DNA from: Felixounavirus LF110P4
Reading direction: 5' to 3' (one strand)
Sequence record: OZ035790.1
Length of the DNA: 64,000 bases
Shown here in pieces: positions 11,287 to 24,510 of this stretch; position 1 is the stretch's first letter, and every line of letters starts with the position of its first letter. Below the pieces are notes generated by a model. The model was not told the origin of the DNA, made no database searches, and worked only from the letters and a program-made list of their open reading frames with translations. A program made the translations under genes and the position numbers.

Positions 11287-19305
<8,019 letters not shown>

Positions 19306-19307
19306 TA

Positions 19308-20495
19308 ATGGCAGTAGGTGAAATTCAAATTAGTGCCTTGCCTCAAGCAGCCTTACCAATTGACCTTAGCGATATCTTCCATCTTAAGCAGGGTATTGAG
19401 GATAAGAGGTGCACTCTTGAGCAATTGCTTGCTCCACACTCAAGCCTAAGAAATAACCCTCATGGTGTTACTAAAACACAAATTGGTTTAGATAATGTTA
19501 TTAATGCTCTTCAGTTAGTTGCTGCAAATAACTTATCAGATGTTGCTAATGTCGCTGAGGCAAGGGCAAATTTACAGATTATGTCTTCAGAAGAGGTTAA
19601 TAATCTTGTTCAACAGCATATTCAGGACAAGAGCAACCCACACAATACAACTAAGGCACAGGTAGGGTTGAGTAATGTTCAGAACTGGACAACATCGAAC
19701 CTTTATAACGAAGATGCAGATAAGTATGCTACAGCAAGAGCAGTAAATAACTTGTACAAGGCTGTTCAGGCTTCTTATCCAGTAGGTACTATCCATCTTT
19801 CCATGAACTCTGCAAACCCTTCTACGTATTTAATTTGTGGAGGAACTTGGGAGTTAGTTTCAAAAGGTAGAGCATTGGTTGGTTATGACTCTGAAACAAG
19901 ACCAGCAGGTTCTGTATTTGGTGCTTCAACTGTCACTTTGTCAGTTAATAACATGCCTCAACACTCTCACTCTGTGTCTCTTAGTGGTGGTGGTCACACC
20001 CATAATGCAACGGTGTCAATTTCAGCTTTTGATTATGGAACTAAGACTACCAACTCTTTTGACTATGGAACAAAGACCACTAACACGACTGGTAACCACA
20101 ACCATGTGGGCAGTGGGTCAACAAATGCGGCTGGTGCTCACAACCACAGATTGACCTATGAAGCAGGTGGTGGTTTATCGGAAAGACCTGCAATGGTTTG
20201 GTCTACAAGGAATGACCAATCATGGTACTCAGCAGATGCTGTCTGTGAAGTCGCTGGTTCACACACTCACTCTTTCAGTGTTACCACTAACACGACTGGT
20301 AACCACAGCCACACGGTTGGTATTGGTGCTCACAGCCATACGGTCGGTATTGGTTCACATACACACAATGGTACTGTGGCAGTTTCTTCTTCTGAGCATA
20401 CACATAGCGGGAACACTAACAGTGTTGGTGGTGGACAAGCTTTCAACATTGAGCAGCCATCCTTCGTACTGTATGTATGGCAGAGAACAGCTTAA
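19308..20495 (+). CDS. tail fibre protein (short) with phage tail-fibre repeat and HxH-rich tip
   Basis: Two NPHGVTKTQIGLDNV / NPHNTTKAQVGLSNV repeats; C-terminal HSHS, GHTHN, NHNH, SHTHS, AHSHT, SHTHN, EHTHS motifs resembling T4 gp37/gp12 metal-binding tips. Confidence 0.75.
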   Translation: MAVGEIQISALPQAALPIDLSDIFHLKQGIEDKRCTLEQLLAPHSSLRNNPHGVTKTQIGLDNVINALQLVAANNLSDVANVAEARANLQIMSSEEVNNLVQQHIQDKSNPHNTTKAQVGLSNVQNWTTSNLYNEDADKYATARAVNNLYKAVQASYPVGTIHLSMNSANPSTYLICGGTWELVSKGRALVGYDSETRPAGSVFGASTVTLSVNNMPQHSHSVSLSGGGHTHNATVSISAFDYGTKTTNSFDYGTKTTNTTGNHNHVGSGSTNAAGAHNHRLTYEAGGGLSERPAMVWSTRNDQSWYSADAVCEVAGSHTHSFSVTTNTTGNHSHTVGIGAHSHTVGIGSHTHNGTVAVSSSEHTHSGNTNSVGGGQAFNIEQPSFVLYVWQRTA

Positions 20496-20504
20496 TTTCT
20501 TTAC

Positions 20505-20527
20505 AGGGGCTTGATAGCCCCTTTTAA
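20505..20527 (+). terminator. intrinsic terminator after short tail fibre gene
   Basis: aggggc-ttgata-gcccc then TTTT. Confidence 0.5.
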
Positions 20528-20541
20528 GAGGAAAATTTATA

Positions 20542-22926
20542 ATGGCAGATTACAAGTTGAGTGAATTAAACTCAATCGATACAATCCGTTCAGATGACCT
20601 TCTTCATGTCAGAGTTAAAAAGAGACCTGAAATGCTGGGTGATGAAGACCGTCGAATGACCTATCAAGACTTCTTAGCTTCTTTTAAACTTGAAAGATTT
20701 GTTCAGATTGCTGGTAGCACTATGACTGGTGACTTAGGGATTGTTAAGTTACTTTATGGTGGTAAGGCAGTCTTTGACCCAACAGGCTCTTCTGAGATTA
20801 CTATTGGGGATGTTTTAAAGACTTTTAAAATCAACGCAAATGGCCTTAAACTAACTATTGCAGATGCTTCAAGGTCGGCAACTGTTTATCATACTCTGAA
20901 TAAACCAAGCCCTAATGAACTTGGGATGAGAACTAATGAAGAGAATGATGCAAGATACTCAAGATTAGCGGCAAATAACATCTTTACCTTCCAGCAAGTT
21001 ATCCAAGCAAATGGTGAAGCTATTAGGTTAAAAAACTCTTCTGAGAACTCACCGTTGTATATCAGAGGTCAGGATAGTGCTGGGGTTAATAGGTGGTATG
21101 TAGGTAATGGTTCAGGGAATGATGATGTTATTATCTACAACTACAAGACCGGTTCCCAAGTTAATCTTACTAATGATATTGCTATCAATAAAACACTAAG
21201 AATCACTGGTCAAGTTCAACCTTCTGACCTCTCTAACTTAGATGCTAGATACTTTACTCAGACAGCAGCTAATCAGAGATTTGCACAGTTAACTGCGAAT
21301 AACACTTTTAGTGGTTTAAACACCTTCAGCAACTATATTAGTGTTAGCTCTAATGCTGCTGCTATCATGCTAAAAAATAAAGCTGTTAATGAGTCTTTGT
21401 TCATCCTAGCAAAAGATGTTGAAAACAATAATCTGTGGTATATCGGTAAAGGTGATGCAAATGACAATATCACATTTTACGATTACAAAGGCAATACCTC
21501 AATTGTCTTAAACTTGTCTGGTGTTGCGTTTAATAAGGATGTAAAAATCACTGGCCAAGTTCAGCCATCTAATTGGTCTAACATTGATTCTCGATACATT
21601 CCAGCAGCTACTTTGAGTAATCTCCCTAAACTTAATGTGGCAAACACTTTCGTGAATGTGCAAACTATCGTATCAAATAACGAAGGTGTAGTATTAAGAA
21701 ACTTGACACAGGGGCAGCCACAATATATCCGTGGTGTTGATACTGCGAATGTATCTAGGTGGTGGGTAGGTGTAGGTGGCACAAATTCTACTGATGTAGC
21801 CTTAAACAACAGCTACTCTGGGACTCAAATTACTCTTATGCCTTCAGCGATTAAGGCTAATAAGAATCTAACCATTACTGGTCAAGTTCAACCTTCTGAT
21901 TGGTCTAACTTAGATGCTAGATATTTTGTTAAAACTCAGTTATTAAACCAATCCTTAATGACTGTCTCTGTAGATAACCTTGGAAACCCTTCAGGTTTTA
22001 ATCTTGGATATTCAGGTTTTGTCAGAAACAATCAGGTTACTAGTGGACTGAAAGAATTGGCAATTCATGTTGCTCACTCTAATAAGACTGCTGCACATGC
22101 AAGAGGAATCTCTTTTGTGTATGGCTCAAATGGACTGGCAACATTTACCTATGCCTATGACAAAGACGGCAGATATGCTGGAGAAGCACAGATTTATACA
22201 ACTGCCTTTAAACCAACCCCTTCAGATATTGGTGCATACACTAAAGCTGAAACTGACCAGAAGATTGCACAGGCAGTAAGTGACTCTACAGACCTTAATA
22301 AAATCTATCCAGTAGGTATTGTAACGTGGTTTAACAGCAACGTTGACCCTAATACAGCACTTCCTGGTCTAACTTGGACGTACCTGAACAATGGTGTTGG
22401 GAGAACTATTAGAATTGCAGCAGCAAATGGTTCAGATGTTGCTACAACTGGTGGTTCAGATTCTGTGACGTTAGCTGTTGGTAACTTGCCATCACACACC
22501 CATAGTTTCTCTGCTACCACTTCATCTTTTGATTATGGTACGAAGGGGACTAACAGTACGGGTGGTCACACTCACTCCGTAAGTGGCACAACAAGTGCTG
22601 CTGGCAACCACGCTCACCACTTAGGTCTGCTATTAGTTAACGGTGGTGATGCTCTGTACGGGTATACAACCGTTGGTAACAGTCTGCCTAGAACACTTGA
22701 CTGGCTTGACAGAAGAGACAATAAATTTCCTAACACTAACACGACTGGTAACCATACACACACATGGTCTGGTACTACAAGTGGTGCTGGTGACCATTCC
22801 CACTCTGTAGGTATTGGTGCTCACAGCCATACAGTTAGTGGTAACACTGGTAGTACGGGTTCTGGTTCAGCGTTTAGTGTTACTAACCAGTTCTACAAGT
22901 TAATGGCTTGGGTGAGGACTGCTTAA
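20542..22926 (+). CDS. tail fibre protein (long) with three internal ~110 aa repeats and HxH-rich tip
   Basis: 794 aa; three repeats each ending ITGQVQPS(D/N)(L/W)SN(L/I)D(A/S)RY(F/I); C-terminal HxH cluster; shares a 23-nt identical stretch with the 19308 gene. Confidence 0.8.
20950..21930 (+). repeat. three tandem ~330-340 bp coding repeats inside long tail fibre gene
   Basis: repeat ends at ~21203-21250, 21546-21600 and 21874-21927 encode near-identical ITGQVQPS...RYF motifs. Confidence 0.7.
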
Positions 22927-22933
22927 TCCCTTG

Positions 22934-22962
22934 TTGACTGATTGTTAAGATGGTGTTAATAT
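22934..22962 (+). promoter_or_regulatory. sigma70-like promoter (TTGACT-17-TAATAT)
   Basis: ttgact at 22934-22939, taatat at 22957-22962, upstream of 23006 ORF. Confidence 0.4.
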
Positions 22963-23005
22963 TCTTTATGGGTATTCTCACCATCTTGGCTGATGAGGTG
23001 ATTAA

Positions 23006-23200
23006 ATGCCTACAATCCTAGCAATTCTTCTAAAAAATCTAGGTAGCTTCTTCTGGAAACTCATTTTATCCCTTCTAAGTGAATACATGATTGAGAAAGT
23101 GTTCTTTAAGCTTGCAAGATACCTTGCGAGTAAAACAGACACACCTATTGATGATGAGTTCGTAGATAACTTAGAAAAAGCTTTTAAGGGGGAGAAATAA
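23006..23200 (+). CDS. small membrane protein (possible holin-like)
   Basis: 64 aa; gaggtga RBS; hydrophobic N-terminal segment ILAILLKNLGSFFWKLILSLL; downstream of tail fibres. Confidence 0.45.
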   Translation: MPTILAILLKNLGSFFWKLILSLLSEYMIEKVFFKLARYLASKTDTPIDDEFVDNLEKAFKGEK

Positions 23201-23566
23201 ATGAAGTGGCTAGAGGAAGCTTTTAAAAATAATATTGGTGCAATTGTAGTTGGTATTTTTAGTGTTATTGGGATGTATACCACCATGCAAGTTTCGGATG
23301 GTAAGCAAGAAGTGTCTGTCACAACAAAGTTACAGCAGCTAGATAATTACAGCAAAGCTAATTACTCAGCTATTCGTGATTTACAGTCTGACATGAGACT
23401 GATTCAGCTAGGGATGGAGAACCAGAAAGTTCAGTTAGAGAATGTTAAGGGTGAAAACGCAAAACTTACCAAAACTCTTGATAAATTCTCTGACAGTGTA
23501 AATAATCTGGCTCAATCAGTATCAGCCCTCCAAGCTATTACTGAGAAGAACACAAAAGAACACTGA
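23201..23566 (+). CDS. membrane-anchored coiled-coil protein (possible lysis-related or fibre assembly)
   Basis: 121 aa; aagggggag RBS; one TM helix (IGAIVVGIFSVIGMY) then coiled-coil-like region. Confidence 0.45.
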   Translation: MKWLEEAFKNNIGAIVVGIFSVIGMYTTMQVSDGKQEVSVTTKLQQLDNYSKANYSAIRDLQSDMRLIQLGMENQKVQLENVKGENAKLTKTLDKFSDSVNNLAQSVSALQAITEKNTKEH

Positions 23567-23574
23567 AAATAAAA

Positions 23575-23612
23575 TTTTAAGGCTCCTTTTTACGGGAGCC
23601 TTTTTTGTTTTT
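23575..23612. terminator. bidirectional intrinsic terminator between convergent gene blocks
   Basis: ggctcc-tttttacg-ggagcc hairpin flanked by an A-tract upstream and T-tract downstream. Confidence 0.7.
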
Positions 23613-24510
23613 ACTTACCTACTGACAAAGGTGCTTCAATCTTTCCTGCATGTTTGTAGTTGTTGATGCCACCAATAAAGTCACTTGCAGTAAGATGTTT
23701 AAGGTCACTTAGAGTGTTAAGCTGTACACCAATCTCAAAAGTAGGTGCATGGAACTCTTCATTGTTCATCAGTTCATAAACCTGCTTCATATGGTTCTGA
23801 TAAATTTGAGTATCTCCAAAGACACCTATCAAGTATCGTGGAGTGTATCCAGTCATCTTACAAAGAACTTCTAAGATAAAGCCATAAGACGCAATATTAA
23901 ACGGAAGTCCTAAAAAGGTGTCTACAGAACGCTGATACCATTGTAAGTCAACTTCACCTTCGTTAGTGATATAAATCTGAAACAGTACATGACAAGGTGC
24001 TAAAGCCATCGAGTTAGCTGCAATATCTGCTGCATTCCAAGCATTAACAAGCATGTAGCGGTCTGTAATATCACCCTTCATCTTCGTTACTAAGGTCTCT
24101 AACTGGTCTACAACACAACCATTATGACCTTCAAAGTTTCTCCACTGAACCCCGTAGATTCTCCCACCTGCATCTTCTAACCAGTCTTGTTCAGAAGAAT
24201 AGTTAGAGCTTAACCAGCGTTTAAAATCATCTGACCAGATAGTCCAGCGTTCCCCATCATTTTCACCCCAAGTACGGTAACGGAGTTCGCCAAGTTTATT
24301 CTCACCATTCAGGAACCATAAAGCTTCCCCGATAACTTGCCGTGTAAACACCTGTTTAGATGTTAAGAGTGGGAAACCAGTACGCATATCAAAACGAAAT
24401 TGTGGTGGAGCAAATGCAGAGATAACATCTCCAGTTCGTGTAGTACGCAGTTCACCAACGGATAAAACATGGTTCAGGATATTTTTGTAACTCAAATCAG
24501 CTTGTGACAT
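23611..24510 (-). CDS. thyA: thymidylate synthase
   Basis: ThyA signature including active-site ALAPCH and LQWYQRSVDTFLGLPFNIASYG motifs; 299 aa, colinear. Confidence 0.95.
   Translation of the reverse strand: MSQADLSYKNILNHVLSVGELRTTRTGDVISAFAPPQFRFDMRTGFPLLTSKQVFTRQVIGEALWFLNGENKLGELRYRTWGENDGERWTIWSDDFKRWLSSNYSSEQDWLEDAGGRIYGVQWRNFEGHNGCVVDQLETLVTKMKGDITDRYMLVNAWNAADIAANSMALAPCHVLFQIYITNEGEVDLQWYQRSVDTFLGLPFNIASYGFILEVLCKMTGYTPRYLIGVFGDTQIYQNHMKQVYELMNNEEFHAPTFEIGVQLNTLSDLKHLTASDFIGGINNYKHAGKIEAPLSVGK

Follow-up and report, generated by a model that had tools for sequence, protein, structure and literature searches.

The genus Felixounavirus comprises the Felix O1-like myophages of Escherichia coli, Shigella, and Salmonella. 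Here we analyze the two tail fiber genes of Felixounavirus LF110P4 in a 64,000-nucleotide (nt) stretch of sequence record OZ035790.1, referred to hereafter as the window, with positions counted from its first letter. Two plus-strand open reading frames (ORFs), at 19308..20495 (395 amino acids, aa) and 20542..22926 (794 aa), are identified from their sequences as the short tail fiber (STF) and long tail fiber (LTF) of a Felix O1-like coliphage.

In phage T4, the receptor-binding tip lies at residues 785 to 1026 of gp37 (PDB 2XGF). Each HxH motif (histidine, any residue, histidine) from the three chains binds one iron, for a total of seven irons; mutagenesis of the tip indicated that lipopolysaccharide (LPS) and OmpC are bound through residues 929 to 959 and that folding requires the histidines, which serve as iron ligands. 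Work on laboratory host range mutants by Tetart, Krisch, and coworkers (1996 and 1998) reportedly found that, in T-even gp37, motifs encoding GxHxH flank the specificity determinant and coincide with the endpoints of recombination and duplication. For the Felix O1-like phages, the first report that both fibers are homologous to the C-terminal adhesin region of gp37 concerned gp74 and gp75 of VpaE1 (Viruses 2015; PMC4690856). Cryo-electron microscopy together with AlphaFold modeling of Bas63 (Escherichia phage JohannRWettstein) described a collar, an HxH needle, and a head in both fibers (Sci Adv 2025; PMC12609058). That two Felixounavirus fibers carry gp37-like HxH tips is already known from these reports of 2015 and 2025.

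Both fibers carry a gp37-type tip on a common scaffold

In a megablast search with the 4-kb fiber region, 262 phage records were matched; Felixounavirus records were the best matches at ∼94% nt identity, with LF82P5 at the top. An earlier note on this DNA, made from its letters alone, had called two tail fiber genes here, and the PHROG families bear this out: STF belongs to phrog_2097 (tail fiber, E = 1e-136) and LTF to phrog_4277 (tail fiber, 1,241 bits over its full length). We consider it highly probable that these two Felixounavirus fibers end in gp37-type tips with unrelated heads, that the identical DNA words found in both genes are motifs of the tip scaffold rather than recent copies, and that the boxes formed by these words bound cassettes that have been swapped.

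The homology of the two C-terminal domains is the starting point for this reading. STF and LTF residues A136-395 and B562-794, respectively, align with 34% aa identity (composition-adjusted BLASTP, E = 2e-26), bearing out the duplicated tip domain that the earlier note had proposed, and the two paralogous tips have ∼60% nt identity. The alignment takes in the nonrepetitive collar segments YPVG...TW... and ...W.RTA. In phmmer searches of the PDB, STF residues 146 to 366 matched 2XGF chain residues 18 to 227 (E = 9e-26), covering the collar, both needle strands, and the head position, and LTF residues 647 to 774 matched chain residues 94 to 219 (E = 6e-22), so that both fibers are similar in sequence to the region of gp37 at ∼785 to 1026. 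The motifs FDYGTK, GxHxH, VGIGAHxHTV, and a C-terminal [IW]xR[LT]A are common to these fibers and T4 gp37. The earlier comparison with T4 had named both gp37 and gp12. Its gp37 half stands, but no gp12 chain was among the PDB matches at E ≤ 1 for either fiber; besides gp37, the searches returned only the C-terminal (collar-like) domain of gp10 and, for the LTF shaft, a T7-type fiber.

Similarity between repetitive tips might also amount to nothing but G/T/N/H-rich low complexity, with the identical words arising by chance, and the needle region does have a biased composition and internal repeats. However, pairwise alignment, the check proposed for this point in the earlier note, shows a similarity that is not one of composition alone: the composition-adjusted score includes the nonrepetitive collar segments, both proteins independently match 2XGF and the same Pfam and PHROG families, and matches such as the 23-mer and 14-mer described below are not expected in shuffled sequence. 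The chance that low complexity accounts for the similarity is therefore negligible. Rather, the sequences mark the STF and LTF tips as old paralogues that have a scaffold in common and carry unrelated heads.

The tip of STF can be laid out along the gene, on the plus strand throughout. Residues 1 to 156 are assigned to the baseplate-binding part and shaft and residues 157 to 395 to the gp37-type tip. The N-terminal half of the collar (aa 157 to 218, YPVGTIHL..., 19776..19961) aligns with the 2XGF collar and with the C-terminal domain of T4 gp10 (2FKK), and Pfam Gp10_C matches here with 68 bits (cutoff, 27). The outbound strand of the needle (aa 219 to 280, 19962..20147) aligns with 2XGF and holds four HxH motifs (at 219, 230, 264, and 278) and two FDYGTK units. 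Between two HxH motifs, at the position of T4 gp37 residues 932 to 965, lies the head cassette, RLTYEAGGGLSERPAMVWSTRNDQSWYSADAVCEVAGS (aa 281 to 318, 20148..20261), a putative receptor-contacting tip. The return strand (aa 319 to 366, 20262..20405) follows with five HxH motifs and two xVxIGxHxH units, and the C-terminal half of the collar (aa 367 to 395, 20406..20492), ending in GGGQAFNIEQPSFVLYVWQRTA, is conserved in both fibers and aligns with the end of T4 gp37, ...IAFNYIVRLA.

The LTF tip follows the same plan, also on the plus strand. Its collar consists of an N-terminal half (aa 589 to 651, 22306..22494), which aligns with the STF collar by BLASTP and reaches 23.5 bits for Gp10_C, under the cutoff of 27, and of a C-terminal half (aa 766 to 794, 22837..22923), which aligns between the two fibers by BLASTP. 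The putative receptor-contacting head (aa 694 to 737, 22621..22752) lies between HAHH (690 to 693) and HTH (738 to 740). By regular expression, STF has nine HxH motifs, four before and five after its head, and LTF has six, three on either side; the SHTHS, GHTHN, and AHSHT clusters listed in the earlier note are among them. Thus, both fibers have HxH motifs on an outbound and a return strand around a short head insert. In both, the collar is made of a segment preceding the needle and the extreme C terminus, where ...AF..........W.RTA aligns with ...AFNYIVRLA of T4. The ...W(Q/V)RTA ending read earlier from the sequence is correct, with ...YVWQRTA in STF and ...AWVRTA in LTF.

This layout suggests how the tips may be built. 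The N-terminal segment (YPVG...) and the extreme C terminus (...W(Q/V)RTA) would meet in the collar, and each chain would run out along the needle and back, giving a trimer of six strands held by HxH motifs whose layers would bind iron as in T4. The receptor would be contacted by the head, a small stretch inserted where the outbound strand gives way to the return strand. The earlier note had described the histidine clusters as part of receptor-binding tips. Homology with T4 instead predicts that the HxH motifs are structural metal staples of the needle, its iron sites, rather than a surface for receptor binding, and that the receptor-contacting heads are the variable inserts at STF 281 to 318 and LTF 694 to 737. 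The two heads are unrelated to each other; with two unrelated heads on a common scaffold, the phage most likely presents two specificities, probably for LPS core or outer membrane structures.

From IMG/VR, we collected 33 related loci, using the conserved 100-aa gene as the anchor. Both fibers were extracted from 30 of these loci and the window (31 genomes). In every STF, FDYG-type units of the outbound strand are matched in number by IGxHxH units of the return strand, at 2/2, 3/3, or 4/4, and nearly all LTFs have one unit of each type. These equal numbers suggest that the needle lengthens or shortens by matched layers, one at a time. Across the same 31 genomes, several unrelated head types were found between conserved HxH boxes.

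Identical DNA words in the two tips and the question of gene conversion

The window has exactly two copies of the 23-mer GGTATTGGTGCTCACAGCCATAC, as the earlier note had it, with none expected in shuffles. The first copy, at 20319..20341 (plus strand), lies in the return strand of STF and codes for G-I-G-A-H-S-H-T; the second, at 22810..22832 (plus strand), lies in LTF at the 3′ end of a module common with T-even phages. A 14-mer, ACGACTGGTAACCA, coding for T-T-G-N-H, has three plus-strand copies, again with no match expected in shuffles: 20085-20098 in the outbound strand of STF, 20292-20305 in its return strand, and 22741-22754 at the junction of the LTF head and return strand. The count of three given earlier was right, but the first two copies had been placed one base too low. 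Since an HxH motif comes after each of the three copies, we regard the 14-mer as the same type of histidine-coding box (His box) as the 23-mer. The two words sit in the scaffold motifs GIGAHxH and TTGNHxH, which are kept at the nucleotide level in both fibers across the genus and in T-even gp37.

From these words, the earlier note had proposed possibly ongoing gene conversion between the fibers. If the fibers had recently converted one another, STF and LTF should be more alike within a genome than between genomes. We compared STF-LTF nt identity in the window with the mean over STF-LTF pairs from different genomes, using codon-aligned tips of 29 loci and the window (locus L030 is without the YPVG landmark). 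Within- and between-genome values were 0.57 and 0.59 for the N-terminal half of the collar, 0.63 and 0.63 for the outbound needle, 0.48 and 0.48 for the head, 0.68 and 0.69 for the return needle, and 0.60 and 0.60 for the C-terminal half of the collar. No within-genome excess was observed in any of the five tip segments of the window. For the 23-nt box in 18 nonredundant close relatives, mean mismatches were 2.50 within and 2.53 between genomes (permutation P = 0.49); the box was perfectly identical in 4 of the 18 genomes versus 12.7% of cross-genome pairs. Exact runs of up to 26 nt were found between the window STF and LTFs of other phages, and runs of up to 30 nt between STFs of other phages and the window LTF.

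The composition of the box itself is also informative. The codons GGT ATT GGT GCT are near-invariant in both fibers genus-wide, and variation is confined to three two-state synonymous sites. GGT, ATT, and GCT are preferred codons of the window phage. The serine codon of the box, however, is AGY in almost all serine-bearing copies of both fibers, despite the preference of the window phage for TCN.

Recent conversion within this genome would explain the 23-nt and 14-nt identities directly. In its favor, exact identity over 23 nt would be rare under random codon choice (P ∼ 0.009), and cross-locus exchange is seen in relatives, both in a 113-nt tract of UAB_Phi87 and in heads that are not sorted by locus (see below). 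Against it, identity in the window is at the between-genome level in all five tip segments, the box is as similar between genomes as within them, exact runs of this length or more link STF and LTF of different phages, the GGT ATT GGT GCT codons hardly vary across the genus, and the heads that lie between the boxes are unrelated in the window. Recent STF-LTF gene conversion in this genome is not supported; it was not detectable by either comparison, and we regard it as a very improbable origin of the words. Identity of the box is seen genus-wide, and here it does not signal recent copying. We return to the reading of the words as conserved scaffold motifs.

Head cassettes are exchanged with T-even phages and between fibers in relatives

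The LTF of the window contains a needle-head module common with T-even gp37 (22520..22835, plus strand), which begins with the last FDYGTK unit, takes in the head, and closes with the first GIGAHxH unit. Over 316 nt, this module matches gp37 of Tequatrovirus SHBML-50-1 at 89.9% identity, and the value for AV122 is 88.6%; at the protein level, the head of LTF and that of SHBML-50-1 gp37 are identical. The match to SHBML-50-1 stops three bases past the 23-mer, and the collar flanking the module has no nucleotide similarity to gp37 of SHBML-50-1 or AV122. The gene matched in each of these two phages is a true gp37, with gp38 and a holin gene after it. When the LTF head was used as the query (22609-22764), identity was 94.9% to SHBML-50-1 and 92 to 95% across SHBML-50-1, AV122, sutha, BYEP01, and N2, with most Felixounavirus records at 84 to 91%. 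The nearest overall relatives of the window are 81 to 85% identical in the head versus 93 to 98% in the flanks.

A second case involves T4 itself: the LTF of VpaE1 matches T4 gp37 over 287 nt at 92.7%, between the same two boxes. For the LTF heads of the L001, L018, and L009 types, a search for T-even counterparts returned only a weak 63-nt match (79%) for one of them, so sharing of heads with T-even phages is not universal. The STF head of the window, queried as 20139-20273, matched 31 GenBank records, all Felixounavirus and once per record, and it sits in the short fiber in 5 of 5 sampled genomes that carry it.

Exchange between the two fibers of one phage was found in UAB_Phi87 (locus L007). 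Here, STF and LTF have an exact tract of 113 nt in common (L007 6140-6252 and 8599-8711), comprising the whole head and the flanking HxH codons, and identity outside the tract is at background. Head identity is 1.00 within this genome versus a maximum of 0.85 to any other genome; by the standard of concerted evolution, UAB_Phi87 shows the within-genome excess that the window lacks. The head in this tract is of a Salmonella type, with the form GGxYGGDSIGGKxRVQ..., that was found in 78 GenBank records, 72 of them from Salmonella phages. It is usually present twice per genome, and most Salmonella Felix O1-like phages, Felix O1 among them, have it in both fibers. Head copies are not sorted by locus: the LTF copy of locus L004 is 95% identical to the STF copy of L015, compared with 77 to 82% to other LTF copies. 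Other LTF head types also follow the isolation host, with an O157/Shigella type and a K-12 type. Cross-locus cassette transfer is thus real in the genus, and head type tracks the host. The broader idea behind the earlier suggestion, that tips are exchanged and that this matters for host range, holds in these relatives and across phage families, but not as conversion within the window genome.

His boxes as candidate junctions for cassette exchange

Three exchange tracts, those of T4 and VpaE1, of SHBML-50-1 and the window, and of STF and LTF in UAB_Phi87, all end inside boxes. Exchanged cassettes end where the boxes lie, and the boxes therefore most probably serve as homology arms in cassette swaps that alter host range. 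In its broader form, the proposal is that the boxes coding for FDYGTK and GIGAHxH, including the 23-mer, are portable recombination junctions through which cassettes move among STF, LTF, and T-even gp37, across two unrelated phage families. We put this forward tentatively, at somewhat under even chances. If it is true, Felixounavirus host range would be drawn from a common cassette pool, would be predictable from head type, and could be re-engineered by swaps at the boxes.

An alternative account is that the boxes are kept only by their peptide (metal ligands and tight glycine turns) together with codon bias, with no role in recombination, and that the apparent boundaries are merely where homologous scaffold begins. 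The HxH residues and neighboring glycines are structurally essential in T4, GGT, ATT, and GCT are preferred codons, BLAST alignments necessarily end where alignability stops, and T-even proteins have extra repeat units past the junction. It is less easily squared with three independent tracts that all end within boxes, with nt identity of the box above the codon-usage null, or with the persistence of AGY serine codons against the TCN preference. On balance, we think this account unlikely, though with a real share of the probability.

Several results count against our interpretation of the tips as gp37-type scaffolds with swapped cassettes and belong in the same balance. In random back-translations with the codon usage of the window, identity of at least 23 nt arose in only 0.9% of 5,000 trials (P ∼ 0.009); the box is conserved beyond codon bias, by some homogenizing force or by deep nucleotide conservation. 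For the question of conversion, we discarded this as the wrong null, as the cross-genome comparison showed. The exchange tract data do not separate a recombination junction from similarity that stops where repeat architecture differs. An AlphaFold2 model of the STF tip as a monomer, based on 68 aligned sequences, was of only moderate confidence (predicted local distance difference test score [pLDDT] of 70, predicted template modeling score of 0.37), with the head under a pLDDT of 50. A Foldseek search of the PDB with this model gave only weak matches (the gp10 C-terminal domain, 2FKK, E = 0.025; C24, 6OV6, E = 0.3), and 2XGF was absent. Finally, a tblastn search of the 64-kb window with gp38 of T4 and SHBML-50-1 gave no match better than E = 0.75 (related genomes are 84 to 90 kb).

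The collar N-terminal half of the STF model did reach a pLDDT of 85 to 91. A monomer of an interdigitated trimer is uninformative as evidence of fold, and the model was set aside for this purpose. Because the Foldseek matches were weak and did not return 2XGF, the fold assignment rests on sequence homology and the published Bas63 work. Tip assembly may differ from that of T4, given that the search of the 64-kb window brought up no chaperone of the gp38 type.

Gene neighborhood and other features of the locus

The fibers lie in a conserved order of genes: a baseplate J-like gene, a DUF2612 wedge gene, a 100-aa gene, the short fiber, and the long fiber. The first two of these genes encode proteins of 489 aa (Baseplate_J-like) and 285 aa (DUF2612). 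The third, for the conserved 100-aa protein, lies directly 5′ of the fibers at 19003..19305 on the plus strand (phrog_4141, E = 7e-61). Gene order in the IMG/VR relatives L001-L029 is as in the window, with fiber pairs of corresponding sizes. In the Bas63 virion, a 395-aa-class STF (gp26) and an LTF (gp27) come after the wedge proteins and the fiber platform (PMC12609058), and the sizes (489 aa and 285 aa) and order of the Bas63 wedge proteins agree with those of the window. By its position, the product of 19003..19305 would correspond to the long-fiber platform protein gp25 of Bas63.

Farther 5′, at 15632-16255, a 207-aa protein has a phage N-terminal domain (Pfam, E = 6e-20) and, near its C terminus, a motif resembling the HxH iron site of the Bas63 central puncturing spike; in Bas63, this site is H188/H190 (PMC12609058). 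On the 3′ side of LTF, two small plus-strand ORFs, 23006-23200 and 23201-23566, occupy the position of T4 gp38. They belong to PHROG families of uncharacterized function, and no Pfam assignment above cutoff was obtained for 23006-23566. A strong terminator-like hairpin lies 3′ of these ORFs at 23579-23602; it was the sole convincing terminator in a promoter and terminator scan of 18900-23700, in which counts were at the level of shuffled sequence.

The shafts of both fibers are repetitive. By eye, the motif NPH..TK.Q.GL.NV.N occurs twice in the STF shaft, at 19440-19500 and 19620-19690 (residues ∼48 to 66 and ∼108 to 126), and several PHROG tail protein families match this stretch. The LTF gene matches Pfam gp37_trimer three times (E = 7e-68), defining a shaft of three gp37_trimer-type repeats at 21016..21930 on the plus strand; phmmer searches of the PDB also matched the LTF shaft to the T7-type fiber (4A0T/4A0U). 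Direct repeats of 82 nt, at 21174-21255, 21519-21600, and 21846-21927, mark where the units end; they are 71 to 76% identical, are spaced by 345 and 327 nt, and encode ...ITGQVQPS(D/N)(L/W)SN(L/I)D(A/S)RY(F/I). The second repeat unit (21300-21600) is only 50 to 68% identical to LF82P5, ECML-1, and KhF2, the closest relatives of the window, with flanks at 90 to 99%, making it a second mosaic segment of LTF, apart from the tip. This divergence fits the poor conservation of the LTF beta-helix repeats noted for Bas63 (PMC12609058).

Some database annotations and records were set aside or appear doubtful. A 10-nt "cos site" annotated in the LTF gene of KhF2 (L037 3473-3482) is a bare pattern feature, which we judged not meaningful; a P22 C1-binding site annotated near it in the same record also looks like a pattern match. 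Felixounavirus fiber genes at 86 to 89% identity were also found in GU169904.1 (Staphylococcus phage SA1) and MG065664.1 (Campylobacter phage A132), which are probably cases of contamination or mislabeling.

Comparison with described phages

These results would direct the search for specificity to the ∼40-aa head between the histidine clusters rather than to the histidines themselves. The window phage has two different heads, one of them near-identical to that of T4-like phages, and in more than 200 sequenced relatives head type goes with the host of isolation. For a group of phages that serves in diagnostics and biocontrol of Salmonella and E. coli, this gives a simple rule by which host range can be read or redesigned.

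Several features set the window fibers apart from those of T4 and its relatives. The head sequences of T4 gp37 differ from both heads described here. The LTF has one FDYG-type and one IGxHxH unit and the STF has two of each, compared with about two and two in T4 (counted by eye). In T4, the tip belongs to the distal subunit of a fiber built from several proteins and the chaperone gp38 is encoded 3′ of it, whereas each fiber here is a single protein. In Tequatrovirus gp37 (Straboviridae), the rest of the protein is unrelated to LTF, there are extra FDYGTK and IGxHxH units, and gp38 again lies 3′.

The Felix O1-like fibers described to date are closer. VpaE1 gp74 and gp75 are orthologues of both window ORFs; the VpaE1 LTF has a T4-type head, whereas the window LTF has one of the SHBML-50-1 type. 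Bas63, compared through its published description, belongs to the same genus and has the same gene order, and each of its two fibers joins a baseplate-binding domain to a gp37-like tip. An extra histidine stands beside the head-proximal HxH motif of the LTF in both phages, as HHxH in Bas63 and as HAHH at 690 to 693 here. Seven HxH motifs were counted in the Bas63 STF and six in its LTF (PMC12609058), against nine and six by regular expression in the window.

In the literature searched, there was no explicit account that Felixounavirus LTFs and Tequatrovirus gp37 have needle-head cassettes in common at the nucleotide level, that Salmonella Felix O1-like phages carry one head in both fibers, or that repeat numbers are equal on the two needle strands. 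The work of Tetart, Krisch, and coworkers remained within the T-even phages; here, the boxes bound cassettes that are common to two fiber genes of one genus and to T-even phages. Sharing with T-even phages, the same head in both fibers, and equal repeat numbers are modest extensions of a form of mosaicism that is already known.

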